A stretch of 64,000 bases of DNA from positions 58,029 through 122,028 of the forward strand of contig JAEPMI010000011.1 in the NCBI GenBank assembly GCA_017644045.1, read 5' to 3'. The notes beneath the pieces are model-generated. The model saw nothing but the letters and a program-made list of their open reading frames with translations, was not told the DNA's origin and did no database searches. The translations under genes were made by a program, and so were the position numbers. Origin of the DNA: Deltaproteobacteria bacterium (GTDB taxonomy: Bacteria > Myxococcota_A > Polyangia > Polyangiales > Houyiibacteriaceae). Below are positions 10,005 to 61,241 of the stretch, one piece after another; positions within the stretch are counted from its first letter, which is position 1; every line of letters starts with the position of its first letter.

Positions 10005-10073
10005 CGAGAGGCTCAGTTCCGGTCGGTGCGATCTTGCTTGAACGCCCCGCACCCGCTCGCTAACCGCGAGCCG

Positions 10074-19304: not shown

Positions 19305-19670
19305 ATGGTCGAGTTCTTCCAGGCAGGTGGTTTCGTGATGTTCTTCGTGCTGGGCTTCGGTGCCCTGGCGATCGCGGCGGCGGTGTACTTCGCGCGCTCG
19401 CCCGACGACCGGCGGCTCGGCATGGTCCGCGCGCTCTCACGGACCACGCTCTTCTCGATGCTCGCCGGCATCGCGACCGACTTCGCCGCCGTCTTCCACA
19501 ACGTGCCCAACCACCCGGAGTGGCTGGAGGGCACCTCGCTGCCGATGGTGGTCATGACCGGCTTCGCCGAGGCGCTCGCGCCGGCCATTCTCGGCTTCAC
19601 TCTCCTGGCACTCGCATCCCTGGTGACCGCGGTCGGGATGCGACGCCTGCCGGACCCGCAGGGAGCGTGA
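19305..19670 (+). CDS. Small integral membrane protein (3 TM helices), first gene of the ECF sigma operon
   Basis: ATG 19305 is preceded by AAGGAG at 19291-19296. The N-terminus is MVEFFQAGGFVMFFVLGFGALAIAAAVYF. The stop overlaps the sigma-factor GTG (GTGA). Confidence 0.65.
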   Translation: MVEFFQAGGFVMFFVLGFGALAIAAAVYFARSPDDRRLGMVRALSRTTLFSMLAGIATDFAAVFHNVPNHPEWLEGTSLPMVVMTGFAEALAPAILGFTLLALASLVTAVGMRRLPDPQGA

Positions 19671-20221: not shown

Positions 20222-20442
20222 CCGATCCCACCGACCCGCTCGACGAGGCCCTCGCCGAGCTCGACACCCACGACGTCGATCACTGGCGGCGCGAGCACGT
20301 GCGGCTTCGCGCGCACGCCGCCCTCGAGGCGAAGCCCCCGGGCCTCTACACGCGGTGGCTCGAGCCGCTGCTCACCTTCGGCATCTGCGCCGCCCACCTC
20401 GCGTGGGCCATCATCCGCGCCGCCGGGATCCTCGTGCCCTGA
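20218..20442 (+). CDS. Putative anti-sigma factor (small, single TM helix)
   Basis: ATGA overlap with the sigma-factor stop. The 74-aa protein has a C-terminal TM segment LEPLLTFGICAAHLAWAIIRAAGILV. The call rests on position. Confidence 0.55.
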   Translation: MTDPTDPLDEALAELDTHDVDHWRREHVRLRAHAALEAKPPGLYTRWLEPLLTFGICAAHLAWAIIRAAGILVP

Positions 20443-36095: not shown

Positions 36096-39257
<3,162 letters not shown>

Positions 39258-39260
39258 GGC

Positions 39261-40454
39261 TCACCCCTTCGAGCGAATCACTTCGAGCGGCTCCGCGTGG
39301 ACGTAGCCCGCGAATCGGCCCCAATAGCGAGCCGTCGAGCGCACGAGATCGTCCGCGAGGTACGGTCGCTCCGCCTGACTCTCGTGACACCGGATGAGGT
39401 CCATCTTGGCTTCCACCAGGTCGCCGATGTCGACGAAGTGTGACGGGTTGAAGTCGGTGGTGGTCGACGGCGCCTGATAGCAGAAGACGTTGGGGACCCC
39501 CCGAGCCGCGACGAGAGTCGCTCGATGCACCGCGCGGTGGTCTTGATGCATGTCGTGCAGGCTGTGGGTGTAGACGGTGGTCGCCTTCGAATCGCGGATC
39601 GCCTTCTCGATCAACGCGATGGTCTCGTGACCATCACTGACCGCGGTGTCGGGGAGCTCGCCCATTTGGAGCACGGCCCGGAGTCGGCGCGCCGCGGCCT
39701 GAGCCTCGTCGGCTCGACGGAGCGCCGTCCCTCCAGAGCCACCCCCGGTGCACGTCAGGATCGTGATTTGGTGGCCGGCCCGGCGGTGGCGTTCGAGAAT
39801 GCCGCCGATCCCGATCTCGACGTCGTCCGGGTGCGCTCCGATGGCGAGAATGGACTCGGTCTCCACCGGCTTCAGGAGGTCGTCGAGCCGTGAGAGCAGC
39901 TTCCTCTGAGTCAGTGGCTTGGGGAGGAACTCGTCGACCTTGGAGCGAAGCGCTTCCACGGCGAGCCCGAGGTCGCCCTTCGCGGTGACGATGATGCAGG
40001 GACGGCGCGGCCACTGACTCTTGCTGCGCTTGGCGACGTCGAGTCCCGAACCGTCCGGTAGCTCGAGGTCGCAGAGGACCGCGTCGTAGTCGGGAGAGCC
40101 GACCTGCTCGAGGGCGGCGTGTCGGGAGGAGACGAGCGTGACCGACTTGCCGGAGCGCTCGAGCCAGCGCGTGACGATGGCCGCCTGATCCATGTCGTCC
40201 TCGACGAGGAGGACGCGGTGGCCCGAGGGGTACACCGACGGCAAGCCGAGCTTCACCGGAAACTGACTCTCCGAGAGGATCAGCGTCGGGTGGTCGTCCG
40301 CAGGTGAGCCGCTGCCACTCCCCTGCATCGGTCGCGCAGGAGGACGGGAGGTGGGCGTCTCGTCACTCTTCGGTCGAGAGGCGACGGGAGATGCAGGGAG
40401 CGGCTTGGCGACACCGCGCGCGATCTGATAGCGGCCGGGGCTTCCGTCGGGCAT
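39261..40454 (-). CDS. Response-regulator receiver fused to a PIG-L/LmbE-family N-acetylglucosaminyl deacetylase domain
   Basis: REC domain: RVLLVEDDMDQAAIV...AVLCDLELPDGSG...FLPKP. PIG-L domain: ILAIGAHPDDVEIGIGG...HQDH. A Pro/Ser-rich leader lies at the N-terminus. ATG 40454 was chosen. Confidence 0.75.
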   Translation of the reverse strand: MPDGSPGRYQIARGVAKPLPASPVASRPKSDETPTSRPPARPMQGSGSGSPADDHPTLILSESQFPVKLGLPSVYPSGHRVLLVEDDMDQAAIVTRWLERSGKSVTLVSSRHAALEQVGSPDYDAVLCDLELPDGSGLDVAKRSKSQWPRRPCIIVTAKGDLGLAVEALRSKVDEFLPKPLTQRKLLSRLDDLLKPVETESILAIGAHPDDVEIGIGGILERHRRAGHQITILTCTGGGSGGTALRRADEAQAAARRLRAVLQMGELPDTAVSDGHETIALIEKAIRDSKATTVYTHSLHDMHQDHRAVHRATLVAARGVPNVFCYQAPSTTTDFNPSHFVDIGDLVEAKMDLIRCHESQAERPYLADDLVRSTARYWGRFAGYVHAEPLEVIRSKG

Positions 40455-40528
40455 GGCTGGGGATAGAGCAAGAGCCGTGCCCACCCAAGTGCGTGAGGGG
40501 TCGGGTGAGCAGCCCCAGAACGGAACGC

Positions 40529-42730
40529 TCAGGGTCCCGATTCGGGAACCACGAAGTCGCACTGGGACAGCACCCGCCCGTCCGAAAGGCGGACGCGCAC
40601 CGTCGAGAGGTATTCCTCGAGGGCGGCGATGGCATGGGTCGTTGCGTCGGGATCGCTGGCACGAGCAGCGTCTCCGATGTGAGTCGCGAGCTCCGTGAGC
40701 TGCATGAAGCCGTAGGCTCCACCCGAGCCCCGTACCCGGTGGGCGATGGACCGAATCAACTCGTAGTCGCTGGTCTTCTGTGCACCGCGCAGGAGCTGGA
40801 TCTCAGCGAGTCGACGGCCGAGGAACTCAGGGATCAAGTCTTCGACCTCGGGGGGCGCATCCACGAGCTCACCCGCCTCGGCGTCCCGGGCATCGGGCGG
40901 CTCTTCGGGTGTCAACATCTCCGCCACGACCTCGACGAGCGCGGCTCGCTTGAAGGGCTTGGTCAGCAGCCGATCGTACCCGTTGGCGACGCACCGATCC
41001 TCCACCTGGGCTCTGGCGTGCCCGGTCACGGCGATCAGAGCGACATCCGGATCGGCGCTCCGGATCCGTCGCGCCAGAGCGTAGCCGTCCATCCCTGGCA
41101 TTTCGAGATCGCTCAGCACCAGATCGACGCGTCGACTGCCAAAGAGTGCTTCGGCCTCGAGACCGGAGCCGGCTTCCACGATTCGGTGGCCGTCGCGTTC
41201 CAGCAGCCGCTTCGTCAGCGCGCGCGATGACGCGTCGTCGTCCACGACCATCACCACGGCGCGCTTGTCCATGATGCCGTGCAGCGACTGGAGGAACGTG
41301 TCCGGTCGGAGCGGCTTGCTGACGAAGTCGTCCGCTCCCGCCTCGAGCGCTTCCTGACGCACGAAGGGCAGCGCGTAGGCGGTCAGGACGATGATGGGTG
41401 TCCGGTCACGCCCGTTCTCTCGCTCCAGGGTGCGGATGGCCCGGGTCAGCTCGATGCCCGAGAGCCCCGGCATCTCGACGTCGGTCACCACGGCGTCGTA
41501 CTCGCGCTGGCGCATGCGCTCGAGCGCCGTGGGGCCGTCCGACGCGACGTCGGTCATGAACCCTGCGCGCTGCAGCGTTCGCGAGATCACCGCACGATTG
41601 TCCGGGTCGTCCTCCGCGATCAGCACTCGGAGGAGGGTCAGCTCGGAGTACGAGCTCTTCCGCTCGGGTTCGGACCGTCCGAGACAGACCTCGATCGCGG
41701 AAAAGAGCTCGCTCCGTCGCAGCGGCGCTCGAACGACGGCCTTGGCTCCGACTTCGTCGCCAATCTGGCGAAGGCTGGAAGATGCGCCCACGAGGATCGT
41801 CGGCACCGCGGCATCGATGCCCCCGGCGAGCAGGGCATCTTCTGCCACCACCCGAACGTCTGCGTCCGAGGCGTCGGCGAGATCGGCGATGACGCTCACG
41901 TCGGCCCCAGCCGTGTGGAGCAGTCGCGTGAGGGCTTCCCGTCGCTCACTCAGCGGATCGCAGAGCTGAACCCGCGGTTTGGTCTCGAGCGCGGGGGGAA
42001 GGGCTTCGCCTGTATCGAGTGGCAGCTGAACTCGCGCGACCGTTCCGCCGCCTGGCCGGTCGAAGAGGGTCACCTCGCCGTGCATCGCGGTGACGAGGCC
42101 GCGCACGATGGGAAGACCGAGTCCGGTGCCGGCCACCGAGTCGTCGCCGCGGACGAAGCGGTCGAACGCACGCTGGTGCATCTCCCGGCTCATTCCCACC
42201 CCGGTGTCCTCGATCGTCAAGCCGACACCACGGATGGGGCCCCCCGCTTCGACCCGCACGACGACCGACCCCGTCCTCGTGAACTTCACCGCGTTGTCCG
42301 CGAGAGCGCTCACCACTCGCGTGAAGCGCTGGAGGTCGCCCAGGACCGGCTTCACCACTCCACCGACGTCGACGATCAGGGTGATGCCTCGTTCACGCGC
42401 TCGCTCCGCCAAGCTCTCGGCGACCTCCTCGACGACGTCGGCCGGGTCGAACGGCTGCTTCCGCAGCGCGATCTGTCCTGCATCGATGCGGCTGATGTCC
42501 AGGAGGTCCTCCACCAGCGAGAGGAGGTGCTCGCCGGCGCGGTGGACACGCTTGATCATCCCTCGCTGTTCGGCGGAGAGCGAGCTCTCGAGGACGAGCT
42601 CGGTCATTCCCAGAATGGCGTTCAACGGAGTCCGCATCTCGTGGCTCATCGCCACGAGGAACTCGGTGTCTTCGCTGAGCTCGTCGCCGCCGGGAGGGCC
42701 GGTCATTCCCATCGAGGATAGCGTGTTCAC
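40529..42730 (-). CDS. Sensor-less hybrid histidine kinase: HisKA-HATPase, receiver(-like) domains, C-terminal Hpt
   Basis: The H-box FLVAMSHEMRTPLNAI begins at about residue 24. The ATPase motif is GTGLGLPIV. Two clear REC domains are present (RVLIAEDDPDNR...TDVEMPGLSG; VVMVVDDDASSR...SDLEMPGMDG). The Hpt motif is IAHRVRGSGGAYGF. The GTG start at 42730 lies 12 nt after the glmS stop. Confidence 0.85.
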   Translation of the reverse strand: MNTLSSMGMTGPPGGDELSEDTEFLVAMSHEMRTPLNAILGMTELVLESSLSAEQRGMIKRVHRAGEHLLSLVEDLLDISRIDAGQIALRKQPFDPADVVEEVAESLAERARERGITLIVDVGGVVKPVLGDLQRFTRVVSALADNAVKFTRTGSVVVRVEAGGPIRGVGLTIEDTGVGMSREMHQRAFDRFVRGDDSVAGTGLGLPIVRGLVTAMHGEVTLFDRPGGGTVARVQLPLDTGEALPPALETKPRVQLCDPLSERREALTRLLHTAGADVSVIADLADASDADVRVVAEDALLAGGIDAAVPTILVGASSSLRQIGDEVGAKAVVRAPLRRSELFSAIEVCLGRSEPERKSSYSELTLLRVLIAEDDPDNRAVISRTLQRAGFMTDVASDGPTALERMRQREYDAVVTDVEMPGLSGIELTRAIRTLERENGRDRTPIIVLTAYALPFVRQEALEAGADDFVSKPLRPDTFLQSLHGIMDKRAVVMVVDDDASSRALTKRLLERDGHRIVEAGSGLEAEALFGSRRVDLVLSDLEMPGMDGYALARRIRSADPDVALIAVTGHARAQVEDRCVANGYDRLLTKPFKRAALVEVVAEMLTPEEPPDARDAEAGELVDAPPEVEDLIPEFLGRRLAEIQLLRGAQKTSDYELIRSIAHRVRGSGGAYGFMQLTELATHIGDAARASDPDATTHAIAALEEYLSTVRVRLSDGRVLSQCDFVVPESGP

Positions 42731-42742: not shown

Positions 42743-44560
<1,818 letters not shown>

Positions 44561-44743
44561 AGCTGCACCTCTCGAGTTGGAGCGGCCCCAACGACCGCCG
44601 ATGGCTGAAGTAGCAACTCGTGGGCCAGGGGGCGGCGAGCCTTGCGGCGTAGGGAGTCCGGCGACGCGGCCCACATCGGAACGCAGCCGTCCCGATACGG
44701 AAATACTCGGCCCTTCGGCGGCCCGAGCGGCGGCAACGAGGGT

Positions 44744-44758
44744 TGGTACGGGACGTGC
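44744..44758 (+). promoter_or_regulatory. Sigma-54-like -24/-12 element TGGTAC-N5-GTGC
   Basis: GG at 44745-44746 and GC at 44757-44758 have consensus spacing (TGGCAC-N5-TTGC). The ATG at 44773 lies 15 nt after the GC. Confidence 0.4.
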
Positions 44759-44772
44759 TCAGGTCCTTTGCC

Positions 44773-45519
44773 ATGCGGGAAGACATGCACGTTCACTCCA
44801 CGTTCTCCGATGGTCGGCACACGGTCGAACAGAACGCCGAGACGGCGGCCTCCCGTGGTCTCACGCGGCTCGGCTGCGTCGACCACGTGCGCCGGGACAC
44901 CACCTGGCTGCCGGACTTCGTTCGTCACGTCCGCAAGGTCGACGCGACGTCGCCCGTACGCCTGGAGGTCGGTGTGGAGGCGAAGCTCCTCGATGCCCGG
45001 GGGACGCTCGACGTCCCGCGCGACCTTCGCGGCGTCGACTGGATCTACGCGGCCGACCACCAGGTCCCCTGGAAGACCGGCGTTCTCCGGCCTCAGGACG
45101 TGCGACGGCTGCTCCAGCTGGGGCGACTCGATTCCGCCGACGTCTTCGAGCTCCTCTGTCTGGCGACCCGCGACTCGATGCGTCGGTACACGAAGGTCGT
45201 CGTCGCTCACCTCTTCAGCGTTCTTCCCAAGGTGGGTCTCAGCGAAGACCAGGTGCCGCTCGACCTCGTCGACGAGCTCGCGGCGACGGCGGCGGCGCGC
45301 GGCGCCGAGATCGAGGTCGACGAGCGCTGGCGTTGCCCATCGCCTCGGGTGGTCGAGCGTTTCGTTCGCCACGGCGTGCCTGTCCGCGCGAGCTCCGACA
45401 GTCACCGTCGGGAGACGATCGGCAAGTACCGATACGTGAACCAGGTCTTCTTCGAGCTCGGCCAACTTCGTCAGGAGTCGGGCGCCTACGCGCCTGCGGA
45501 GAAGGCCCGTGCTGCGTGA
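44773..45519 (+). CDS. PHP-domain metal-dependent phosphoesterase
   Basis: MREDMHVHSTFSDGRHT...LGCVDHV is the typical PHP N-terminal His cluster. The 3' end overlaps the next gene by 11 nt. Confidence 0.7.
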   Translation: MREDMHVHSTFSDGRHTVEQNAETAASRGLTRLGCVDHVRRDTTWLPDFVRHVRKVDATSPVRLEVGVEAKLLDARGTLDVPRDLRGVDWIYAADHQVPWKTGVLRPQDVRRLLQLGRLDSADVFELLCLATRDSMRRYTKVVVAHLFSVLPKVGLSEDQVPLDLVDELAATAAARGAEIEVDERWRCPSPRVVERFVRHGVPVRASSDSHRRETIGKYRYVNQVFFELGQLRQESGAYAPAEKARAA

Positions 45520-46780
45520 GCACGCCGTCGCCGGACTCTTCGCCGTTCTGGCGGCTTCGAGCGCGAACGCCCAGGAGGTGGACCCGCGAGGGGTCCGCTT
45601 CGAGCGGGCGGCGCACTTGATGGCCGAAGGGCAGCGAGAGCAGGCCTATCCGGAGTTGGTCGCCCTCACCGAGGATGGTGCGCCGTTTCCGGAGGCCTAC
45701 CTCTTTCGAGGGAGCATCGAGCGTGAGCGAGGCGATCTCGCCCAGGCGCAGCGCGCGTTCGAGGCTGGCCTGGCGGTGGCCCCGAGCCATCGCTCCCTCC
45801 GCCTCGAGCTCGCGGTCACCCTCTCCTGGAAGGGAGAGACCGAGAAGGCCCTCGCTTCCTACGAGGCCGTCCTCGCCGCCGACCCCGACGACACGGTTGC
45901 CGCCGTGGGCCGAGGTCGGATGCTCTTCTGGCTCGGCCGCCACGAAGCCGCGGTCGAGGCCTTCGAGGCGGTGCTCGCGCAGGAACCCGAGAACCTCGAG
46001 GCGATGGTGGGCCTGGCCGACGTGCACCGGGCGCGCCTGCGGAGGCGGGACGCGCGTGAGCTCTACGATCGGGCGCTGACCATCGATCCTGCGTTCCAGC
46101 CGGCGGTCGAGGGCAAGGCGAAGCTGTCGGAGGCGACCCGCGCGGAGCTTCGTCTCGACCTCGGCCTCTCCCATGGCGACGCCGGCCTGAGCGGGCGCGG
46201 GGGGCTGGGCGCGACCGTGTTTCTCACGCCCGAGCTCAGCCTGGTCGCCGGCTTTCGGCAGGACGTGCAACGCAACGAGCTCGAGATGGCTCGCATCGGG
46301 ACCGTGTCCCTGGTCGCGAGAGTCGGCGAACGACTGGCCATCGAGGCCGGCTACCAGCTCCTGCGTGCCGAAGGAGACCGAATCCACCGCATCCCGCTCG
46401 GGCTCTCGTTCCGGGCGACCGACAAGTGGACCTTGCTCCTTTCGACCCGGCCCGGTGTCCGCGAGGATGGGCGATTCGAGCACCTGACCATGCTCGGCTC
46501 GCAGCATCAGGTGGGACCCTTTCGCTGGATGTTGCAGGTCTTCCGAGGTGACCACCGCACCCAGCACGAGACGGTGTTCGCGCTCTCGGGCGAGCTCGAT
46601 TTCGGCGTGTTCGGTGTTCGGGTCGGGGTCGCGGGGGCCGTCGCCGAACAGCACTACGGCACCGTGGGCGCGCAGCTGCGGCTCACTCTCGGCCGTCGCC
46701 ACGACCTGCTCCTCGGCTACGACCACCTGACCCTCGGTGGTCGCCATGTATCCACCCTCGGCTATCGGGTGCGGCTGTGA
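45509..46780 (+). CDS. Secreted TPR plus beta-barrel protein (BcsC/PgaA-like exopolysaccharide export porin candidate)
   Basis: The signal peptide is AGLFAVLAASSANAQ. TPR units run from about residue 30 to 190. The C-terminal half has alternating beta-strand patterns (AELRLDLGLS, LGATVFLT, LSLVAGFR, TLGYRVRL). The GTG start is preceded by GAGAAGG. Confidence 0.55.
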   Translation: MLREHAVAGLFAVLAASSANAQEVDPRGVRFERAAHLMAEGQREQAYPELVALTEDGAPFPEAYLFRGSIERERGDLAQAQRAFEAGLAVAPSHRSLRLELAVTLSWKGETEKALASYEAVLAADPDDTVAAVGRGRMLFWLGRHEAAVEAFEAVLAQEPENLEAMVGLADVHRARLRRRDARELYDRALTIDPAFQPAVEGKAKLSEATRAELRLDLGLSHGDAGLSGRGGLGATVFLTPELSLVAGFRQDVQRNELEMARIGTVSLVARVGERLAIEAGYQLLRAEGDRIHRIPLGLSFRATDKWTLLLSTRPGVREDGRFEHLTMLGSQHQVGPFRWMLQVFRGDHRTQHETVFALSGELDFGVFGVRVGVAGAVAEQHYGTVGAQLRLTLGRRHDLLLGYDHLTLGGRHVSTLGYRVRL

Positions 46781-48612
46781 ATCGTCTCGCCATCCTCGTG
46801 CTGACGCTCCTCCAGGCGTCGAGCGCTCTCGCCGCCGACGCGCTGCTCGAACGCCCGGAGACCCTCCGCGGTGCCCACGCCTCCTGGGAGGTGACCTTCG
46901 AGGGCAGCGGCAGTCCCCGCGTCGACCTCCGCTACGAAGCGTCCGACTTGCTCTCGCGCCGCTCGCTCCTGACCGTCGAGGTCGATGGCGTGCCGCGGGT
47001 GACCCGGCCATTGCGTGCGAGCGGCCGGCTCGTGGCGGCACTCGGTGAGCTCGGCGAGGGCTTTCACCGTCTGACCGTTCGCGCGCGACTGCGCGTCGAC
47101 GAGGATCCCTGCCTCGATCAGAGCGCCGACGACGCCTGGGTTCGGATCGATTCGGCCGACCTGCATGGCGTCTCCGCCAGCGCGGGCGGGGAGACGCTGC
47201 TCGAGTGGCTCGGCGAGCAGAGCGAAGAGTCGATCCGGCTGGAGGTCCCGGACGAGGTGCGCGAGTCGCTGGAGCCCGACTGGGCGAGCGCCGTCCTCGA
47301 CGCCCACGCGCTCCTGTGGAGTCGCGGCCTGAAGCCCGCCCCGCGGGCGGACCGGGCGCTGCACCTTCGCGTCGGAGCGGTCGACGAGGGCGTCGCCTTC
47401 GCAGCGGTCGACGGGGACGACCTGGTGGTGACCGCCGCTGGCCCCGGCGCGCTCGCCGTCGGTCTCCGCGCCCTCGGTGACGAGGGGGTGCTCCAACGCT
47501 GCGTCACCGAGGGATGCGAGCTCTCCGAGCTGCGCGAGAGCGCGGAGGTACGGAGCGATCGGACCACCGAGGTCGTGCGCCTCGACGACCTCGGGTTCGC
47601 TCGCGGCTGGCGCGCCGCTGGGGAAGGCCGGCATGTCCTCCGCTTCGGCTGGGACCGACCCGCCGACTGGCGGCCGACCGAGTGGCCGCGGGTCGAGATG
47701 GCGGTGCGGGTTCCAGCGACGGGGATCGACGTCGAGCGAAGCCGCGCGACGCTCTCGGTCAACGACATCCCCCTCGCGACCTGGGCGCTCGAAGCGGGTG
47801 AAGCTCGTTGGCGGGGTCGCGTGCCCGAGGCGGTGTGGACCGAGGGCCGCTGGGAGGTCGAGCTCGCGGTGACCCTGCGCACCCACGAGGACGAGGGCTG
47901 CCACGACGAAGACGACGACCTGTGGGTCCACGTGGACGGGTCCAGCTCCCTGACGGTCCCCCGCGAGGAGCTCGCCTTCGCTGGGCTCGCCTCCGCGGTG
48001 GATCATTTTCGCGGGGCCCCGCTGGTCTGGAACGAGCGCCTCGGCGTCGACGCGCTCGGTGCCGTTGGCGCCGTGCTCGCCCCGCTGCAGGGAAGCGAGC
48101 CCTGGCGCTGGTTGCCGCCCGGTCGGGAGTGTCGAGGGGCCTGCATCCGCATCGCCAGTGGTCGCTGGTGGGAGGACGAGTCCCGGTTGACCCTCGTCGG
48201 CGACGTCGGGCGCCGTCGCTGGCGAGACGACTCCGGCGAGCTCGGCATGCCCTTGCTCCCCGCGGAGGACACCCTCCTGCTCGAGCGCCGCGGTCGCGAC
48301 GAGCTCCTCGTGGTGGCCTTGGGTGCGCCCGAGGAGCTGGCGCCCCCCAGTTGGGTGGGGCTCCTGGGTGAGATCGCGCTCTTCCACGACGGTGCCTGGG
48401 ACATTCTCGCGGTCGACGACGAGCCCACCGTGGCGAGAGTCGTGGAGGCGCCAGAACCCGAACAGGCGGCTCAGATGTCGGTCGAGGAGGCGCAGGTCCG
48501 CTGGGTCGACGTCGGCTTCACCGTCTTGGCCGGCCTCGTGCTCGCCTCGGTCGCGTTCACCTCCTTCCGCCGTCGGCGCCGGAAGGACACCCCTTCAGGA
48601 GTCTCGACATGA
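46777..48612 (+). CDS. Periplasmic BcsB-like (cellulose-synthase regulatory-subunit-like) protein with a C-terminal TM anchor
   Basis: It has a signal peptide. Two repeats follow the BcsB-like pattern (RVDLRYEASDLLSRRSLLTVEVDGVPRVTRPL and a second unit ...RSRATLSVNDIPLATWAL). The C-terminal TM segment is VGFTVLAGLVLASVAFTSFRRRRR. The start overlaps the upstream stop (GTGA). The family call is by pattern only. Confidence 0.45.
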   Translation: MNRLAILVLTLLQASSALAADALLERPETLRGAHASWEVTFEGSGSPRVDLRYEASDLLSRRSLLTVEVDGVPRVTRPLRASGRLVAALGELGEGFHRLTVRARLRVDEDPCLDQSADDAWVRIDSADLHGVSASAGGETLLEWLGEQSEESIRLEVPDEVRESLEPDWASAVLDAHALLWSRGLKPAPRADRALHLRVGAVDEGVAFAAVDGDDLVVTAAGPGALAVGLRALGDEGVLQRCVTEGCELSELRESAEVRSDRTTEVVRLDDLGFARGWRAAGEGRHVLRFGWDRPADWRPTEWPRVEMAVRVPATGIDVERSRATLSVNDIPLATWALEAGEARWRGRVPEAVWTEGRWEVELAVTLRTHEDEGCHDEDDDLWVHVDGSSSLTVPREELAFAGLASAVDHFRGAPLVWNERLGVDALGAVGAVLAPLQGSEPWRWLPPGRECRGACIRIASGRWWEDESRLTLVGDVGRRRWRDDSGELGMPLLPAEDTLLLERRGRDELLVVALGAPEELAPPSWVGLLGEIALFHDGAWDILAVDDEPTVARVVEAPEPEQAAQMSVEEAQVRWVDVGFTVLAGLVLASVAFTSFRRRRRKDTPSGVST

Positions 48613-48749
48613 ACCGTCTCGAACACTTGAGGCTCCAAAAACGGCGGGTGCGTGCCATTCGCCGATGGACGCTCCTGCTCCTGGGGCTGGATCTCCTGCT
48701 CGCCGCCTCCCTGCTCGGCCACTACGCCCTCTCCCGCTTCGCCGCCTGA
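48609..48749 (+). CDS. 46-aa single-TM micro-protein (too short for the supplied ORF track)
   Basis: ATG 48609 overlaps the BcsB-like stop (ATGA). The sequence is MNRLEHLRLQKRRVRAIRRWTLLLLGLDLLLAASLLGHYALSRFAA: a basic N-terminus followed by one TM helix. Third codon positions are mostly GC. Confidence 0.5.
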   Translation: MNRLEHLRLQKRRVRAIRRWTLLLLGLDLLLAASLLGHYALSRFAA

Positions 48750-48756
48750 ACCCCCC

Positions 48757-49338
48757 GTGACCAACCACTTGCAGCTCGTATCCAGCGAACCGCCGGACCA
48801 GGTCTACGAACGGCTTCGTCCCCACCTCACCCAGGGGCTCTTGCCCGCGGACCCGGCCTTGCTCGCCATCATCGTTCCTGGCCTGCCCGAACCGGGGGCG
48901 TTGCGCGTGGCGCTCGACCGGCTCGTCGCCAGCGGCCGGCTACGGCGCGTCCTCATCGGCGCCGAAGCGCACCTCCTCGACGGTGCGGGGCCGATGCCCG
49001 CGCCGGTTCAGCACGCCCCCGTGCCCATGCCCTCGCAGATGCACGTCCCGCAGATGCAGGTCCCGCAGGTGATTCCACACACCGCTCCCGTCCAGTATCA
49101 GGGGCACCCCATGGTCGCACCTCCCGCGACGATGGTGGCGCCGGTGGCACCTTCGCTCGATCCGCAGCCGAAGCCCTCCGAGACCGTGGCTGGCGGAGAC
49201 ATGGACTTCGAGCTGGAGGTCGCCATCGACGTGGAGACCGAGCGCGCCGTCCTCTGGCGGGTGGCGTTGGTGGTGGCGGCCCTCGGCTTGCTGGCCCTCT
49301 TGCGCCAGTGGATGCTCATCGGCATCGGAAGCGGCTGA
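48757..49338 (+). CDS. Hypothetical protein with a Pro/Gln/Met-rich linker and C-terminal TM helix
   Basis: The GTG 48757 start lies 7 nt after the micro-ORF stop. High GC at third codon positions. The linker reads HAPVPMPSQMHVPQMQVPQVIPHTAPVQYQ. The TM segment is LWRVALVVAALGLLALL. Confidence 0.55.
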   Translation: MTNHLQLVSSEPPDQVYERLRPHLTQGLLPADPALLAIIVPGLPEPGALRVALDRLVASGRLRRVLIGAEAHLLDGAGPMPAPVQHAPVPMPSQMHVPQMQVPQVIPHTAPVQYQGHPMVAPPATMVAPVAPSLDPQPKPSETVAGGDMDFELEVAIDVETERAVLWRVALVVAALGLLALLRQWMLIGIGSG

Positions 49339-49350
49339 GGAGGACACCCC

Positions 49351-49692
49351 ATGGAGATGAGTCTCGGGTACATGGTGGAGACGGTCGAAGCGCTGGCCAC
49401 CAAGGGATACGTGGTCGAACGGGCCGAAGAGCCCTACGCGGACGACGGCTCGGTCGTCGGACACCTCTTCACCCTCACCAAGCCGGAGGTCGAGCTCCGC
49501 TTGGAGACCGTCGTTCATGCCGAGGACGGCGAGCGCTACTTTCTCGAGATCAAGTCGTACCACGGTCTCTGGTCCCACTCCTTCGAGCTGGACAGCTGGA
49601 AGCATCGGCCCGATCGGATCGAGTTCAAGTACCAGCCGAGGCCCGATGGGACCGGTGGGCTCGCGTTCACCCTCGTCTTCGACGAAGCCTGA
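49351..49692 (+). CDS. Small soluble hypothetical protein (113 aa)
   Basis: ATG 49351 is preceded by GAGGAGGA. Codon bias is strongly coding. No recognisable motif. Confidence 0.65.
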   Translation: MEMSLGYMVETVEALATKGYVVERAEEPYADDGSVVGHLFTLTKPEVELRLETVVHAEDGERYFLEIKSYHGLWSHSFELDSWKHRPDRIEFKYQPRPDGTGGLAFTLVFDEA

Positions 49693-49705
49693 TAGGCTGC
49701 CGCGC

Positions 49706-51040
49706 ATGGGAGGAACCATCGTCGTCGTCGAGGACGACATCGACCAGCGCACGCTCGTGTCCCGGTGGCTGGAACAAGAGGGCCACGACGTGGAGCCCGT
49801 CGAGACGGCGGAGCAACTGGTGGAGATCCTGGCGACCTCGGTACCGGACTGCGTCTGCCTGGACCTCGAGCTTCCCGGCATGACGGGGATGGAGGCGCTC
49901 TCTCGACTGCGAGCGACCCATCCCCAGCTCCCGGTGATCATCGTCACCGCCGAGCGGGAGGTCGATGTCGTGGTCGACGCGATGCAGTCCGGGGCCTACG
50001 ACTTCCTCCCGAAGCCGCTCGACAAGCTCAAGCTCCTCACGATCGTGAATCGGGCGCTCGAGAAGGTCCGCATGAGTCGGCGCATTCAGGAGCTCGAGCG
50101 CGGTAGCGCCGACGAGTACGCCGGCATGATCGGTCGACACGCGACGATGCGGGCGCTCTTTCGCGAGGTCGAGCGCGTCGCCGCCACCGATGTCACCGTG
50201 CTCGTTCACGGCGAGTCCGGAACCGGAAAGGAGCTCGTCGCTCGCGCACTCCATTCACAGGGCGCTCGCGCGACGAAGCCCTTCGTGGCCATCAACTGCG
50301 CGGCGATTCCCGAGTCGCTCCAGGAGAGCGAGCTCTTCGGCCACGAGCGGGGGGCTTTCACCGGCGCGACCGACCGCCGTCAGGGACGCTTCGAGGAAGC
50401 CGACGGTGGCACGCTCTTTCTCGACGAGATCGCCGAGCTGAGCCTGCCGGCACAAGCCAAGCTCCTCCGAGTCCTGCAAGAGCGGACCTTCCGCCGAGTG
50501 GGTGGTGATCGCGACCTCCGCAGTGACTTTCGCTTGGTGGCGGCCAGCCACCAGAACCTGCTGGAGCGTGTCGCGGAGCGGACGTTTCGCGAGGACCTCT
50601 TCTTTCGGGTCGCCGTCTTCGAGCTCGACGTCCCGCCGCTTCGGGAGCGCGGGAAAGACGTGGAGCTCCTCTCTCGCTTCTTTCTGCGACACCACGACCT
50701 CGAGCTGCAGGAGGACGCGCGCTCTCTGCTCACGGCGTACGATTGGCCGGGCAACGTCCGTGAGCTCGAGAACGCCATCCGACGCGCGGTCGTGGTGGCA
50801 CGTGAGGGTGTGATCGCGGCCGCCGACTTTCCCAAGCGGATTCGCGCGGCCCTCAGCGGGAACCCGAGACCGAATGCGCCCGTCAGCGACGGCGACGGCG
50901 GAACGATGGAAGACCTCGAGCGAGCGGCGCTGGCCGACGCCCTCCAACGGCACGGTGGAAACGTCGCTGAGGTGGTGAGGGAGCTCGGCATCGGCCGAAC
51001 GACCGTCTACCGCAAGCTCAAGAAGTACGGCCTGCGCTGA
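49706..51040 (+). CDS. NtrC-family sigma-54-dependent response regulator (REC-AAA+-HTH)
   Basis: REC domain: IVVVEDDIDQRT...CLDLELPGMTG...FLPKP. AAA+ domain: GESGTGKE, GAFTGA and the Walker B motif TLFLDEI. The C-terminal HTH is VAEVVRELGIGRTTVYRKLKKYGL. Confidence 0.93.
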   Translation: MGGTIVVVEDDIDQRTLVSRWLEQEGHDVEPVETAEQLVEILATSVPDCVCLDLELPGMTGMEALSRLRATHPQLPVIIVTAEREVDVVVDAMQSGAYDFLPKPLDKLKLLTIVNRALEKVRMSRRIQELERGSADEYAGMIGRHATMRALFREVERVAATDVTVLVHGESGTGKELVARALHSQGARATKPFVAINCAAIPESLQESELFGHERGAFTGATDRRQGRFEEADGGTLFLDEIAELSLPAQAKLLRVLQERTFRRVGGDRDLRSDFRLVAASHQNLLERVAERTFREDLFFRVAVFELDVPPLRERGKDVELLSRFFLRHHDLELQEDARSLLTAYDWPGNVRELENAIRRAVVVAREGVIAAADFPKRIRAALSGNPRPNAPVSDGDGGTMEDLERAALADALQRHGGNVAEVVRELGIGRTTVYRKLKKYGLR

Positions 51041-51127
51041 GCGTCCCACGGCGGTCCGATCCGGGCCGCACGAGTCCCGGAACGGGACAGCCCCCACGAA
51101 GTCGGCCGTTTCGAGCGGCCGATTCGT

Positions 51128-51142
51128 CGGCACGGACCTTGA
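51128..51142 (+). promoter_or_regulatory. Weak sigma-54-like element cGGCAC-N5-TTGa
   Basis: GG at 51129-51130 and TTG at 51139-51141 have consensus spacing. The -12 C is replaced by A. The ATG at 51156 lies 14 nt downstream. Confidence 0.25.
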
Positions 51143-51155
51143 AAGGGTCCTCGGC

Positions 51156-52145
51156 ATGCTCAGCAACGACAAGCCGCGAGTACTCATCACGGGCGCCGGT
51201 GGCGCGGCCGCCTGCGTTCTCCTCTCCCACCTCTCCCCGCATGCTCGGCTGCACGCCGCCGACATCGACCCGCTCGCGGCGGGTCTCTACCTGGCACAGG
51301 AGGGGCGCCGGCATCTGATCCCCCGAGGCGACGATGCTCGCCTGGTGCCGGTGCTCCTCCGCCTTTGCAAAGAGCACCGCATCGACGTGCTGGTGCCGAC
51401 GGTCGACTTCGAGCTGCTCGCGGTGTCCCAGGCGCGGGCCGAGTTCGAGGCGATCGGGACCCAGCTGATGGTCGCATCGCCCGAAACCCTCGAGGTGTGT
51501 CTGGACAAGCTCGCGCTGTGTCGACGGCTGGAGCTCATCGCACCACGAAGCGTGCCGCTCGACGGAGACTTCGACCCCACCGATTGGATGTACCCCATCC
51601 TGGTGAAGCCGCGTACGGGTGCGGGAGGGCGCGGCATCCGCGTCGTCGAGTCGGCAAAGGACATGCGCGAGCTCATCGGCGCGCCGGGCGACATGGTGCA
51701 GGAGTACCTCCCAGGCGAGGAGTACTCGGTCGACGTCCTTCGCCTCGGTCGGGAAGTCCTGGCCACCGTTCCCCGAGCTCGTCTCAAGGTCGACTCGGGC
51801 GTCGCGGTCGCTGCTCGCACCGTTCACGACCTGGTGGTGGAAGCGGCGGCGCGCTACGCCGCCGAGGCCATCGACCTCGAGGGCGTCGCCAACGTTCAGC
51901 TTCGCCGCTCGCGGGGCGGCACCCCCAAGTTGATGGAGATCAACGCGCGCTTCCCCGGGACCATGTCCATCACGATCGCCGCGGGAGCAGACCTGCCCAT
52001 GGCGTGGCTCGAATACACGCTCTCCGGTCGTCTTCCCGCTCCCATCGCCTTTCGCGACGTCGCCATGGTGCGCACCTGGCAGGACCACGTCATCGACGCG
52101 TTCGTCCGCGAGGCGGACCCCGGCGCAGAAGCCGACGCGGCCTGA
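51156..52145 (+). CDS. ATP-grasp fold ligase (CarB-like ATP-binding domain)
   Basis: The motifs are RVLITGAGG, ILVKPRTGAGGRGIRVVES, MVQEYLPGEEYSVDVL and LMEINARFPGT. Confidence 0.8.
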   Translation: MLSNDKPRVLITGAGGAAACVLLSHLSPHARLHAADIDPLAAGLYLAQEGRRHLIPRGDDARLVPVLLRLCKEHRIDVLVPTVDFELLAVSQARAEFEAIGTQLMVASPETLEVCLDKLALCRRLELIAPRSVPLDGDFDPTDWMYPILVKPRTGAGGRGIRVVESAKDMRELIGAPGDMVQEYLPGEEYSVDVLRLGREVLATVPRARLKVDSGVAVAARTVHDLVVEAAARYAAEAIDLEGVANVQLRRSRGGTPKLMEINARFPGTMSITIAAGADLPMAWLEYTLSGRLPAPIAFRDVAMVRTWQDHVIDAFVREADPGAEADAA

Positions 52146-52146
52146 C

Positions 52147-53601
52147 GTGCAGCTCGTCGGGGCACTGCTGACCCTCTTGGTCGTGCTCGGGACCCTTCCC
52201 GTGCTCGCCGGGGCCTACCAGTTCCTCGTCCTCGCGCTCTCCGTGTTCGCGACGCACCTCGAGAAGACCCGCATCCACCTGCCACGGGTCGCCATCCTCA
52301 TCCCTGCATGGAACGAGGGAATGGTCATCGGTGCCACCATCGACCGCTTGATGCAGCTCGAGTATCCCCCCGACCGGCTTCGCATCTACGTCATCGACGA
52401 TGCCTCCACGGACGAGACGCCGGAAGAGACCATTCGCCGCAACAAGAAGTGGCCGAAGAACGTCTTCCACGTGCGGCGCGTAGCGGGCGGTGAGGGCAAG
52501 GCCCACACCCTGAACTACGGCCTGGCCCAGCTCTGGCAGAACGACTGGACGGAGGCGGTCCTCATCATGGACGCCGACGTGATCTACACCGCGTCGAGCC
52601 TGCGGCGCATGGCGCGACACTTGGTCGACCCCGAGATCGGCGCCGTCACGGCCTACATCAAGGAGGGAAGCCGGTCGCCCAGTCTGGTGCAGCGCTTCAT
52701 CACCTTCGAGTACATCACGGCGACGGGGGCCTCGCGACGTGCCCAGAACGTCATGGGTTTCCTCGCCTGCCTCTCCGGCGGTGCCCAGCTCCACTCGCGG
52801 GAGAACCTGCTCGCCATCGGTGGGGCGATCTTCGACGACACCCTCGCCGAGGACACCTTCACGACGTTCAACACCCAGCTCGAGGGACGCAAGGCCATCT
52901 TCGAGCCGAACGCGTTGGTGTATGCCGAGGAACCCGACACGCTCCGCATGCTCTGGAAGCAGCGGCTCCGGTGGGCTCGCGGCAACGTCCAGATCACTCA
53001 GGTCTTCGCCAACCTCTGGTTCAACGGGGTCAAGCACGAGTCGCTCGGGAGCACGGCGATGGCCGTGCTCTGGTTCAGCATCTTTCTCATGCCGGTCTTC
53101 CAGATCGGCACGGCGATCGGGCTGCTCGGGCTCTACGCGATCGACCCCGCGTGGGCGTGGGAGCTCTTTCGCGCGTACTGGATCGTCGCGAGCCTGGTCT
53201 ACCTCTTGGTGACCTTCGCCTCCTACGTCATCGACTGGGAGTCGGCGCGCAAGAGCTGGTTCGAGGGGGTGATGTTCCCCGGCGTCATCTCGCTGATCGT
53301 GATCGTGTACGCGCTCGTGCCGCCGCTCTTCGACAGCTGGCTCGTGTTCGTGCCGGCCCCGAGCTGGGCCAAGGCGACGCTCGTGCTCTTCCTCTATCTG
53401 TGGACCGCGCTCGCCATGCCGGTGAGCTACCTGGCGATGCTCGCCGAGGACCACGGGCACATGAGGCTCTCCAAGGCTCTCCTCTACCTCGCGGGCTACG
53501 GCCCGTTCCTGTGCGCGGTCACCTTCGGTGCCTACGTGAAGGAATGGCAGGGGGCGGACAAGACCTGGGACAAGACGGTGAAGACAGGAAAGGTAGGCTG
53601 A
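52147..53601 (+). CDS. Membrane-integrated processive family-2 glycosyltransferase (polysaccharide synthase, QxxRW type), no PilZ domain
   Basis: VAILIPAWNEG, YVIDDASTDET, GKAHTLNYG, IMDADV, LAEDTFTT and QRLRWARGN are present. One N-terminal TM helix and at least 5 C-terminal TM helices are predicted. The protein ends 25 aa after the last TM helix. Confidence 0.85.
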   Translation: MQLVGALLTLLVVLGTLPVLAGAYQFLVLALSVFATHLEKTRIHLPRVAILIPAWNEGMVIGATIDRLMQLEYPPDRLRIYVIDDASTDETPEETIRRNKKWPKNVFHVRRVAGGEGKAHTLNYGLAQLWQNDWTEAVLIMDADVIYTASSLRRMARHLVDPEIGAVTAYIKEGSRSPSLVQRFITFEYITATGASRRAQNVMGFLACLSGGAQLHSRENLLAIGGAIFDDTLAEDTFTTFNTQLEGRKAIFEPNALVYAEEPDTLRMLWKQRLRWARGNVQITQVFANLWFNGVKHESLGSTAMAVLWFSIFLMPVFQIGTAIGLLGLYAIDPAWAWELFRAYWIVASLVYLLVTFASYVIDWESARKSWFEGVMFPGVISLIVIVYALVPPLFDSWLVFVPAPSWAKATLVLFLYLWTALAMPVSYLAMLAEDHGHMRLSKALLYLAGYGPFLCAVTFGAYVKEWQGADKTWDKTVKTGKVG

Positions 53602-53603
53602 CG

Positions 53604-55601
53604 ATGCGGCAGGGACTCTCGTACACACTGGTGGCGCTGGCCGTGTTGTCCACGAACGGCGCGCATGCACAGTGGCCCTCGTCGGGAGCAGGCGAATCGA
53701 CGGCGCAGGCCGTGCGACGGCTGGACATGGAGCTCCGCGGCGGTCCCTCTGCGACACAGCGCCGGAACCGGCGCAGGCGCACCTCGAGCGCGACCCCCAC
53801 GACCAGTCTCACGAGCACCTCGAGCCCCAGCCTTCGAGCGATGGAAGGGCAGACCATGGCGCTCGGGGCGACGTGTGACGGACACCCCACCGGCATCGCG
53901 ATGACCACGCCCAACGGCCCCCTCGCGCAGGACGACGTCGCGATCCTCGAGGCCGAGGGATGCTTCGAGCCGGCCACCACCTTCCAATGGCTCGTCCCGT
54001 CGAGCGCGACCATCGTCGGAGCCGGACCCCGGGTGAACTTGCTCACCGGTATGGAGACCTCGATGACCGTCGAGGTCTGCGCCGTGGCCAGCGAGACCCA
54101 CTGCCACAAGCTCGATGTCTCCCTCGGGGCGCAGCGCCCCCGCGTCGAGCTCCACACCATGGTCGAGCTCGCCGACTATGGCTATGGCAAGGTCTGGCGA
54201 CTCGAGGGGACGACCCACGCCATGCCCGCCGGGGCCACGCTGAAGCTCTTCAAGCACAGCGACGTGCATTACCTCGAGAACGCCGTTCCCGTCTTTGGCC
54301 CAGGCGGGTCCTTCGCGTTCGAGGCCTTCGCGCTCAGCTCGGTGGACCGCTTCGTCGTCGAGATGATGGACGACGTCGCCATCAACTCCTACCCCGGATG
54401 CGCGTCCAAGTGGTGCCGCGGCTCACTGCACGACGAGTCGGGTCACCACGTACCCATCCCCCCGGACGGGGCGAGCATCTACGCCTTCGCGACGGCATAC
54501 GTCGATCAGCCGGGAGACCACCCCAATCCCTCCATCGACGCTGCCATCGACCTGCTCGGGGACGCGCTGCCCGGAAACGGTGGCCGGCTGTTGCACACCA
54601 GCTGGGAGAGCGACCTCTGCTTCCTCTATGAACAGGCCGTGGCGGTCATCGCCTTCGGCGCCGCGGGCGCACGCACCGAGGCCGAGGGCATCCTGGATGC
54701 GCTCGCGGGCCTCCAGCTCGCCGATGGCTCCTGGTACTTCGCGTACTACGACGACGGGACCAGCCCTTTTCCGCAGTCCGGTGATGTCCGCTATTCGGGA
54801 GCGGTCGCCTGGGCGGCGCTGGCCTTCGCCTCTCACCGTCACCTTTTTGGTACTACACAATACGACAGTGTCCTGAATTCGGTCATCGCCTATTTGAACG
54901 GCACTCGCGCGACGTTTGGTGGAAGCACGGGCCTGCTCTTCAATCCGACCGACTTGTCGAACACGTCCTGGGACGAAACTCAGGTCATGGCTCTCGAGCA
55001 CAACGCGGACGCGCTCGCGGCGGTCCAGGTGTTGGGGGATCCGGCGAACGACGCTCTCCGGGCCGACCTCGAGCAGACGGTGCTGGCGCGGTGGAACGGG
55101 CAGTACTTCCGGCCCGGGGTCCATGAGGTCTACGGTGAGAACTACGTCGAGCTCTACCTCGACCCGCAGACCTGGGGTCTGCTGGCACTCGACGGGACCC
55201 AGGCGCTCGCGCACCTCGGGGCGCTCGACTTCGCCTGCGAGCGTTTCACGGAGCCGGCCGGGATGAGCGGCCGGGAGGCAGGAATCTTCGGCATGTTCGA
55301 CTTCGATCTCACGAACCAGCCGCTCCCGCATGGGCGCTTCGTTTGGACGGAGGGCACCCATGGCGCCGCCCTGGCGCTCGAGCGCGCGCGGGCGTTGACG
55401 GGCCAACCCATCCAGTGTGCGGGCCAGACCCCCACGACCATGCGAGCAGAGCTGGGCCGGCTCGCGGCGTTCGGGCTGGCGGGCGTCCCCGACGAGTCCA
55501 CCCAGGCGCCCGACTCGCCCTACCGGCCGGTTCCGACGGCGGCGTCGGTGCTCTGGCACTACCTGTCCCTCGAGGGGGTAAACCCATTTGAGCGACCGTG
55601 A
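53604..55601 (+). CDS. Secreted protein, possible (alpha/alpha)-toroid glycoside-hydrolase-like domain (hypothetical)
   Basis: The signal peptide is [15 protein letters not shown] low-complexity Ser/Thr/Arg linker follows. The C-terminal roughly 400 aa is helical with Trp/Tyr-rich motifs ([26 protein letters not shown]). Its position after the synthase parallels BcsZ-type hydrolases. The fold is not verified. Confidence 0.4.
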
Positions 55602-61147: not shown

Positions 61148-61213
61148 TGGCCCGCCGGGTCCCACCCGTCCCGAAATGGGCCGAAGTGGGATGGTTGGAG
61201 CCGAAGAACCGTG

Positions 61214-61228
61214 TGGCACGCGTCCTGC
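61214..61228 (+). promoter_or_regulatory. Sigma-54-type promoter candidate TGGCAC-GCGTC-CTGC
   Basis: This is the best match in the window to TGGCAC-N5-TTGC. The -24 hexamer is perfect and the -12 GC is in register. The ATG at 61242 lies 14 nt after the GC. Confidence 0.5.
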
Positions 61229-61241
61229 TTCGTGTCGGGGC

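Follow-up and report, generated by a model that had tools for sequence, protein, structure and literature searches.

A candidate sigma-54-regulated, synthase-type system for a hexosamine glycan, with a receiver-fused PIG-L deacetylase, in a Deltaproteobacteria bacterium

We analysed a 64,000-nt stretch of DNA from a Deltaproteobacteria bacterium (assembly GCA_017644045.1, contig JAEPMI010000011.1, positions 58,029 to 122,028; hereafter, the window), focusing on ten plus-strand genes at 44773-55601 that a first reading made from the letters alone (the sequence-only reading) had described as an atypical synthase-dependent exopolysaccharide (EPS) locus. On balance, we favour the view that these genes belong to a sigma-54/two-component regulon encoding synthase-type machinery for the production and export of a hexosamine glycan, and much less confidence should be placed in the specific chemistry of the product. 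The characterised synthase-dependent EPS systems are a handful (cellulose, poly-N-acetylglucosamine (PNAG), alginate, Pel and a few others), and nearly all of them have been described as gated by cyclic di-GMP (c-di-GMP). Judged by its predicted proteins, the locus behaves as such a system, with a BcsB counterpart as in cellulose loci and a PgaC-like synthase and a TPR/beta-barrel protein as in PNAG loci; it belongs to neither, as none of its proteins reached the cut-off of the PgaA, PgaC, BcsA (CelA), BcsC or NodC models, which bears out the earlier judgement that it matches no canonical EPS system. What appears to be new is that a PgaC-like synthase is accompanied by an ATP-grasp ligase, by a deacetylase doubling as a response regulator, and by an interchangeable phosphatase of the PHP or the low-molecular-weight (LMW) type. 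There is a real chance that the locus represents both a new polymer chemistry and a new mode of control.

The enzymes at the centre of this reading are a polytopic glycosyltransferase family 2 (GT2) synthase (52147..53601, plus strand), an ATP-grasp carboxylate-amine ligase (51156..52145, plus), a PHP-family metal-dependent phosphoesterase (44773..45519, plus) and, to the left of the ten genes, a PIG-L deacetylase of carbohydrate esterase family 14 (CE14) fused to a response-regulator receiver (REC) domain (39261..40454, minus; the start codon is uncertain, 40454 being the first ATG past the promoter). An alignment of the GT2 family was scanned across 185,579 species-representative genomes (one per GTDB species), yielding 387 relatives, and more than 120 database clusters were >60% identical to the window GT2. 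The best 80 of the 387 loci, in which the GT2 was at least 52% identical to that of the window, came from Myxococcota, Beta- and Gammaproteobacteria, Gemmatimonadota, Acidobacteriota, Bacteroidota and many Actinomycetota; the closest named relatives were Myxococcales/Sandaracinus metagenome-assembled genomes (MAGs), and the taxonomic labels of MAGs may include mis-binned contigs. All open reading frames (ORFs) of 83 loci were clustered and the loci were counted per family, the tallies being lower bounds because many contigs are short. The GT2 was found in 76 of the 83 loci, the ATP-grasp ligase in 67, REC-PIG-L in 61 and the PHP protein in 54, followed by a histidine kinase (41), the TPR/barrel protein (33), a 113-aa protein (p113; 33), the BcsB-like protein (26), a sigma-54 enhancer-binding protein (EBP; 20) and GlmS (11). 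By this comparison, GT2, ATP-grasp, REC-PIG-L and the PHP phosphatase are the predicted conserved core, and this enzyme core was found in at least six bacterial phyla.

The setting of the core differed between lineages. Loci of Actinomycetota contained a bare four-gene operon (REC-PIG-L, ATP-grasp, PHP and GT2) beside a PAS kinase and an OmpR-type regulator, and the TPR/barrel protein was absent from all loci labelled Actinomycetota, occurring only in diderm lineages. In Marinicella sediminis F2, the only cultured isolate seen with the cassette, the operon comprised REC-PIG-L, ATP-grasp, GT2, TPR/barrel and a low-molecular-weight protein tyrosine phosphatase (LMW-PTP), beside an H-NOX sensor, a kinase and a LuxR-type regulator. 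An H-NOX (haem-NO-binding, HNOB) sensor and a hybrid kinase adjoined the cassette in nine loci, including that of Marinicella (L056, 4916-13391); this neighbourhood suggests nitric oxide as an input signal in the H-NOX-bearing lineages. The BcsB-like protein was confined to diderm loci of the subclade whose GT2s share at least 62% identity with that of the window. p113 was restricted to the same subclade, where it was present also in loci lacking the envelope-export genes, and two small membrane proteins likewise fell within it, being traceable in fewer loci. The gene order of the window recurred in two independent metagenome contig families, in which the BcsB-like protein was 62% and 33% identical to the window's, and parts of it recurred throughout the 83 loci, so the arrangement is not due to chance. 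In both contig families, the conserved block ran leftward into divergent glmS and REC-PIG-L genes, with a hybrid kinase between them in one (L001).

The three non-transferase enzymes of the core appear to be catalytically intact. REC-PIG-L matched both Response_reg (6e-23) and PIG-L (6e-23; 82 bits vs 28) in Pfam, and its best NCBIfam match was BshB1 (82.9 bits, cut-off 182.5). The zinc-binding and catalytic motifs AHPDD and H-Q-D-H were invariant in 61 of 61 orthologues, the phospho-acceptor Asp of the receiver was present in 58 of the 61, and its Lys was conserved too. The PHP domain scored 30.1 bits vs 26.4 in Pfam, and its metal ligands (HxH, D, H, E, H, H and DxH) were kept in 53-54 of 54 orthologues. 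The ligase matched ATPgrasp_Ter, ATP-grasp_3 and PylC-like_N, the last corresponding to its N domain, in Pfam and NCBIfam, and retained its ATP- and Mg-binding set (Lys/Glu/Asp/Arg/Asn/Glu-x-Asn) in 62-70 of 70 orthologues. Since these signatures are essentially invariant across 54-70 orthologues, the three proteins are probably working enzymes rather than relics. The proposed tie between the ATP-grasp enzyme and the synthase held, the two being co-conserved in the 67 loci and sharing a sigma-54 promoter; the accompanying idea that the ligase decorates the polymer stood in part, as its substrate is more likely a deacetylated sugar amine, which it would acylate, than the finished polymer. Some Myxococcota loci contained two ATP-grasp paralogues and a receiver-less PIG-L (L004, at 8938-9984 and 19330-20322; L023; L027). 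A Wzb-like LMW phosphatase substituted for PHP in the PHP-less loci (L005/L006/L020, L033, L049, L050, L056, L058 and L059), which gives 7 loci in our tally; Wzb was the best match of this LMW-PTP, and the swap looks like a non-orthologous replacement mirroring that of CpsB and Wzb in capsule systems.

The GT2 (484 aa) matched Pfam Glyco_tranf_2_3 and other GT2 families. Its translation contains DDASTD, DAD, AED and QRLRW; the last three motifs had been read correctly before, whereas the first is DDxxxD and not DDxxD. We recognised one hydrophobic segment near the N terminus and five or more in the C-terminal part, the C-terminal multi-helix membrane domain being large and highly conserved, and the protein ends in a conserved tail ~25 residues beyond the last segment. 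The best characterised match was PgaC/IcaA (2e-38, nearly full length), followed by CelA and NodC in NCBIfam, and the closest relative in the PDB was the minimal cellulose-synthase-like PcManGT, followed by BcsA. All characterised families were matched far below their cut-offs: the PgaC/IcaA equivalog TIGR03937, still the top-scoring one, gave 132.4 bits (cut-off 422.3), CelA (BcsA, TIGR03030) 73 bits (cut-off 699.1) and PRK11498 53.6 bits (cut-off 992), and HpnI, like NodC, was among the NCBIfam matches, both far under the cut-off. The Pfam scan found no PilZ domain in any product of the locus, in keeping with the description of the synthase as PilZ-less; its nearest characterised relatives are PgaC/IcaA and BcsA.

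Control of the locus can be traced from its promoters. The NtrC-type EBP (49706..51040, plus) comprises REC, Sigma54_activat (2.5e-69) and HTH_8 domains in Pfam, and a GAFTGA loop was read in its translation. The palindrome GTYCCG-N3-CGGRAC, allowing 0-1 mismatches, occurred three times in the 64 kb, always in intergenic regions of the locus; each occurrence was accompanied by a second, weaker copy 21-22 bp away, and a TGGCAC-N5-TTGC-like element followed ~40-50 bp downstream of each pair. We searched with a script for composite sites (two palindromes plus a sigma-54 promoter), using 60 simulated windows as the control. Four composite sites were found in the window, ahead of REC-PIG-L, glmS, the PHP operon and the ATP-grasp/GT2 operon, and none in the 60 simulated windows; a plain genome-wide count of the sigma-54 consensus was not above chance (18 vs 14.3 expected), and only the composite was significant. 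For REC-PIG-L (40467..40548, minus), the promoter lies at 40482..40467 and the palindromes at 40512-40526 and 40534-40548. A divergent control region (44612..44759) holds the glmS promoter (44627..44612, minus), the PHP-operon promoter (44744-44759, plus) and one palindrome pair common to both (44668-44703). Ahead of the ATP-grasp/GT2 unit (51053..51143, plus), palindromes at 51053-51067 and 51074-51088, the latter a perfect GTCCCGGAACGGGAC, precede a promoter at 51128-51143. The PHP-side promoter was kept in L001 and L008 and occurred as a variant in L003, while the ATP-grasp/GT2 promoter was kept in L001, L007 and L008.

Because these composite sites recur and are conserved, the whole block very probably has the EBP as its dedicated activator, and the proposal of an internal sigma-54 activator gains promoters and palindromic upstream sites ahead of four transcription units. 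The first in-frame ATGs (40454, 44773, 51156 and 61243) lie only 12-16 nt past the respective -12 elements (~40469, 44757, 51141 and 61226), which implies either leaderless or nearly leaderless transcripts or misplaced start codons. Domain scans detected no PilZ, GIL or MshEN domain and no degenerate GGDEF/EAL receptor domain in any locus protein. Control appears to run through a phosphorelay and not through a PilZ or other c-di-GMP receptor, and by its domain content the system is probably c-di-GMP-independent.

The promoters also extend the locus. It had been taken to begin at 44773, but co-regulated genes for REC-PIG-L, a hybrid histidine kinase (HisKA-HATPase-REC-REC-HPt; 40529..42730, minus; assigned by Pfam and syntenic in L001) and GlmS, a glutamine-fructose-6-phosphate aminotransferase, sit further left. 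The glmS gene (42743..44560, minus; NCBIfam TIGR01135, 676.9 bits, cut-off 418) is divergent from the PHP operon. The ten plus-strand genes themselves were reproduced at the expected coordinates from high-GC3 frames and ORF coordinates, third-position GC being used to pick genuine frames because the window is ~70% G+C, and Pfam and NCBIfam scans confirmed their described domains. Between 44773 and 55601, neighbouring genes overlap by 4-11 nt or are separated by 1-13 nt, except for a 115-nt gap 5' of the ATP-grasp gene. In the closest genome, Myxococcales bacterium UBA1660 (L007; GT2 89% identical), ATP-grasp, GT2 and a 667-aa gene lie beside a kinase at 9017-13470; the PHP-to-EBP operon is not near them, so the two operons are separable within a genome.

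The export side of the predicted system includes a 611-aa periplasmic protein with a signal peptide and a C-terminal transmembrane (TM) anchor (46777..48612, plus), for which a BcsB-like fold had been proposed as a refutable claim. Pfam BcsB was matched at 23.8 bits (gathering score 21). A word-indexed search returned four relatives, and an exhaustive profile search returned 294, including 122 at E<=1e-10; these were mostly 600-700 aa long and matched over their full length. A family profile built from 68 sequences matched only BcsB chains in the PDB (E 8e-8 to 2e-5). The AlphaFold2 model (predicted local distance difference test (pLDDT) 90.4, predicted TM-score (pTM) 0.81) shows two successive repeats, each made up of a beta-sandwich followed by an alpha/beta domain, and then a long C-terminal helix, corresponding to the CBD-FD-CBD-FD architecture and TM anchor of BcsB. 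In Foldseek, the 22 best PDB matches were all BcsB (E 5e-26 to 1e-20, TM-score ~0.5 over the full length), and the next hit dropped to E 6e-8. As both the model and Foldseek return BcsB, the claim of a BcsB-like fold survives, at a sequence identity of ~12% to E. coli BcsB and <=15% to Rhodobacter BcsB. The reported detachment of this gene from the synthase is real in the window, where 3.5 kb separates them, but it is not a conserved trait: in many relatives, the gene is found immediately beyond p113, with ~1.8-2.6 kb between it and the start of the GT2, which makes the wider separation a local arrangement. Given its distribution, the protein is best regarded as a probable accessory of one diderm subclade rather than the defining part of the system.

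The presumed outer-membrane component (45509..46780, plus) is a secreted protein with a TPR domain and a predicted C-terminal beta-barrel of ~215 aa. Pfam confirmed the TPR families; PgaA (TIGR03939, 49 bits, cut-off 366.65; the second-best match) and BcsC (NF008520, 23.7 bits, cut-off 858) were matched in the TPR part only. A profile of the C-terminal part gave weak matches only (best E 1.8e-4), all to outer-membrane or designed TM beta-barrels, EstA, TbuX, KdgM, NspA and OmpA among them. The TPR_Slam (surface lipoprotein assembly modulator) model scored above its threshold in the Marinicella orthologue (L056, 11523-12881; 49.4 vs 35.2) and below it in the window (29.9). We considered a Slam-like (type XI) translocon and did not adopt it, as TPR_Slam covers the TPR part only and there was no DUF560 match in the barrel.

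Between the BcsB-like and EBP genes lie three small genes whose products matched no Pfam family and reached no NCBIfam cut-off. The first (48609..48749, plus) encodes a membrane protein of 46 aa that has a single TM helix, preceded by a basic RRW motif, with equivalents by position and motif in L001, L003 and L005. The second (48757..49338, plus) encodes a C-terminally anchored Pro-rich TM protein; nine aligned orthologues, from Myxococcota to Lysobacterales, share an N-terminal domain of ~70 aa, a variable Pro-rich linker and a conserved DVExER followed by the TM helix, and no PDB match was found for it. The third is the cytoplasmic p113 (49351..49692, plus), which has at least 148 homologues, all unnamed, with an invariant D-S-W motif. 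Its AlphaFold2 model (pLDDT 95.1) places a single helix against a meander sheet of seven strands; the PDB contained no match to this fold (best E 0.1), and sequence profiles were empty in both PDB and Pfam. We considered p113 as a possible cryptic PilZ protein, or a c-di-GMP receptor of another kind, and rejected PilZ, since the high-confidence model has neither the PilZ fold nor any significant PDB fold match; its fold seems to be an orphan one, linked to a single GT2 subclade. The tenth gene (53598..55601, plus) encodes a secreted protein of 667 aa with a signal peptide in its translation. It had been described as hydrolase-like, but no Pfam, NCBIfam or PDB match was obtained with the single sequence or with a three-sequence profile. 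The gene is lineage-specific, being confined to the two nearest relatives (L001 and L007), and is not part of the conserved system; the Pfam scan of the locus proteins detected neither GH8 nor any other glycoside hydrolase family.

Taken as a working scheme, the favoured reading would run as follows. Sensor kinases would phosphorylate the EBP, which would turn on glmS, REC-PIG-L, the export operon and the ATP-grasp/GT2 operon, and they would probably phosphorylate the receiver of the deacetylase as well, gating it post-translationally. GlmS would increase the supply of UDP-N-acetylglucosamine (UDP-GlcNAc), and the GT2 would polymerise GlcNAc and thread the chain via its own membrane domain. 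PIG-L would deacetylate a GlcNAc unit accessible from the cytoplasm (a donor, a primer or the non-reducing end), the ATP-grasp enzyme would acylate the exposed amine anew, an amino acid being a plausible carboxylate for this step, and the phosphatase would strip phosphate from an intermediate. In diderms, the BcsB-like and TPR/barrel proteins would move the product across the periplasm and outer membrane, and in Actinomycetota the four-gene core would suffice. A GlcNAc-based product is suggested by three independent hints: the PgaC-like GT2, the linked and co-regulated GlmS, and the PIG-L family. To our knowledge, all characterised PIG-L/CE14 enzymes deacetylate GlcNAc glycosides. Both PIG-L and the ATP-grasp enzyme are cytoplasmic, which suggests N-acetyl removal followed by re-acylation of the amine; we infer a secreted glycan derived from GlcNAc, whose N-deacetylation and subsequent re-acylation would both take place in the cytoplasm. 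Four features argue for a secreted polymer whose synthase also translocates it: the BcsB-fold partner, the restriction of the TPR/barrel protein to diderms, the highly conserved multi-helix membrane domain of the GT2, and the sufficiency of the core in monoderms.

Several points weigh against this reading. In the channel-forming synthases known to us, the nascent chain is inaccessible to cytoplasmic enzymes, so the deacetylase and ligase fit the tailoring of a small glycoside at least equally well. PcManGT, the best PDB relative of the GT2, is not an established exporter of polymers, and the substrate, linkage and even processivity of the GT2 are properties that we infer. The barrel has no specific similarity to the PgaA, BcsC, PelB or AlgE porins by its C-terminal profile; by eye, it appears to have ~14 strands and looks smaller than known EPS porins, which have 16-18. 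c-di-GMP may act through a non-PilZ site, and the replacement of PHP by LMW-PTP could indicate a phosphoprotein substrate.

The alternative that fares best is that the product of the core is not a long polymer but a small glycoside, an oligosaccharide or a glycolipid, which we regard as unlikely but serious. The GT2 would transfer GlcNAc to a phosphorylated or lipid acceptor or build a short, NodC-like chito-oligomer; dephosphorylation, deacetylation and amino-acid ligation would follow, and the envelope proteins would export or display the glycoside. The four core enzymes map one-to-one onto the steps of mycothiol synthesis, all cytoplasmic or facing the cytoplasm, and the same logic is found in glycosylphosphatidylinositol (PIG-A, PIG-L) and Nod factors (NodC, NodB, NodA). 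The BshB1 match of PIG-L, the presence of NodC and HpnI among the GT2 matches and the occurrence of the core alone in Actinomycetota are all in its favour, and QxxRW is known also in non-processive or oligomer-forming GT2/GT21 enzymes. However, the NodC and HpnI models score far below cut-off, MshA and BshA are soluble GT4 enzymes and not membrane GT2s, and the GT2 here has its large conserved multi-helix membrane domain. Moreover, diderm loci generally carry the TPR/barrel protein, and those of the >=62% subclade the BcsB-fold protein, both of which have characterised counterparts that handle polymers. Compared directly, mycothiol and bacillithiol synthesis (MshA, MshA2, MshB, MshC; BshA, BshB, BshC) and NodABC share with the locus GlcNAc transfer, deacetylation and N-acylation, as well as dephosphorylation in the case of mycothiol. 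In contrast to the thiol pathways, the transferase of the locus is a polytopic PgaC-like GT2; unlike all three pathways, the locus uses an ATP-grasp ligase in place of MshC, BshC or NodA and adds envelope-export components and a receiver domain.

It is improbable, in our assessment, that PIG-L, ATP-grasp and the phosphatase instead regulate the synthase, for example by a phosphorylation and dephosphorylation cycle or by covalently modifying the GT2 or one of its partners, with the receiver as the link to the kinases. PHP and LMW-PTP interchange, and both families act interchangeably as phosphotyrosine phosphatases in capsule/EPS control (CpsB, Wzb), Wzb being also the best LMW-PTP match; the deacetylase bears a bona fide receiver, and some proteins of the ATP-grasp fold are kinases. 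Nevertheless, among the genes conserved in the loci there is no bacterial tyrosine (BY) kinase, nor any other obvious phosphoprotein partner, no protein substrate is known for PIG-L, the ATP-grasp enzyme has ligase-type residues and a PylC-like N domain, and PHP is present even where PIG-L lacks the receiver (L004). An ordinary PNAG or cellulose operon lying beside unrelated genes is very improbable: the Pfam BcsB score just over the gathering score, the top GT2 match to PgaC/IcaA and the second-best TPR match to PgaA speak for it, but the reading is contradicted by scores far below cut-off (132/422 bits for PgaC, 49/367 for PgaA, 73/699 for CelA and 24/858 for BcsC), by the lack of a PgaB-type CE4, GH8 or PilZ domain in the locus, and by neighbours whose conservation follows that of the GT2 through six phyla and whose promoters have the same architecture as its own.

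We return to the favoured reading of a secreted hexosamine glycan to place the locus among known systems. It resembles PNAG synthesis (PgaABCD in E. coli, IcaADBC in staphylococci) in that PgaC/IcaA is the closest characterised GT2 family, a predicted outer-membrane TPR plus beta-barrel protein is present as in PgaA, small membrane proteins accompany the synthase as do PgaD and IcaD, deacetylation is predicted, and the polymer is probably GlcNAc-based. It differs in that its deacetylase is a cytoplasmic, receiver-fused CE14 enzyme, whereas PgaB and IcaB are periplasmic or extracellular CE4 enzymes (no Polysacc_deac_1 domain was found in the locus by Pfam); in its ATP-grasp, phosphatase and BcsB-fold proteins, none of which occurs in Pga/Ica; and in that neither a PgaD homologue nor the PgaC-PgaD c-di-GMP site was identified. 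Shared with cellulose synthesis by BcsA-BcsB(-BcsC-BcsZ) are the full BcsB architecture with its TM anchor, a GT domain with QxxRW as in BcsA, and a predicted TPR/barrel protein. In contrast to BcsA, the GT2 of 484 aa has no PilZ domain and another TM count; the locus lacks BcsZ (GH8), the BcsB-like protein is limited to one subclade, and the substrate is probably GlcNAc, whereas that of cellulose is glucose.

A pairing of a BcsB-like protein with a non-BcsA QxxRW GT2 has been predicted for the sfz/sfb stalk-formation cluster of iron-oxidising bacteria (PMC8250860), which provides a bioinformatic precedent for a BcsB-like partner outside cellulose systems. The N-terminal domain of the Sfz2 GT2 was annotated by those authors as EpsE-like, a domain of a type II secretion system protein (PMC8250860). 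We rejected identity with the sfz cluster, which has a different GT2 architecture and different accessory genes and includes no PIG-L, ATP-grasp or PHP (PMC8250860). The cassette was not described in the literature that we searched by full text, where the sfz pairing was the sole related precedent, and an earlier in-silico mention is possible. As a tentative extension, the loci may represent a widespread class of surface-glycan machinery that has so far gone unrecognised, in which a PgaC-like synthase would secrete a polyglucosamine re-acylated with an amino acid or another carboxylate by the cytoplasmic pair of PIG-L and ATP-grasp; output would be gated directly by receiver phosphorylation and by sigma-54 rather than by c-di-GMP, with nitric oxide input through H-NOX in some lineages. 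If the product is an N-acylated glucosamine polymer, biofilm glycans would gain both a matrix chemistry and a control logic that are new, and BcsB-fold proteins a role outside cellulose. The question is directly testable, owing to the cultured host Marinicella sediminis F2 and the compact operons of Actinomycetota.

On the right side of the locus, two PAS-HisKA-HATPase-REC hybrid kinases (55675-58185 and 58163-61147, plus; identified by Pfam and syntenic in L001) and a REC-EAL phosphodiesterase gene (region 61168..62456, plus; ATG at 61243) probably belong to it too, the membership of the latter in the regulon being tentative. The regulon would span ~39.3-55.6 kb, possibly reaching out to 62.5 kb. 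Upstream of REC-EAL, a sigma-54 promoter-like site with one mismatch to the consensus (61214-61229, plus) follows a weaker, degenerate copy of the locus palindrome at 61168; these sites suggest that the same activator may lower c-di-GMP through REC-EAL as the system switches on. On the left, the housekeeping gene for SecA (36096-39257) lies directly beside the locus and marks the boundary of the regulon.

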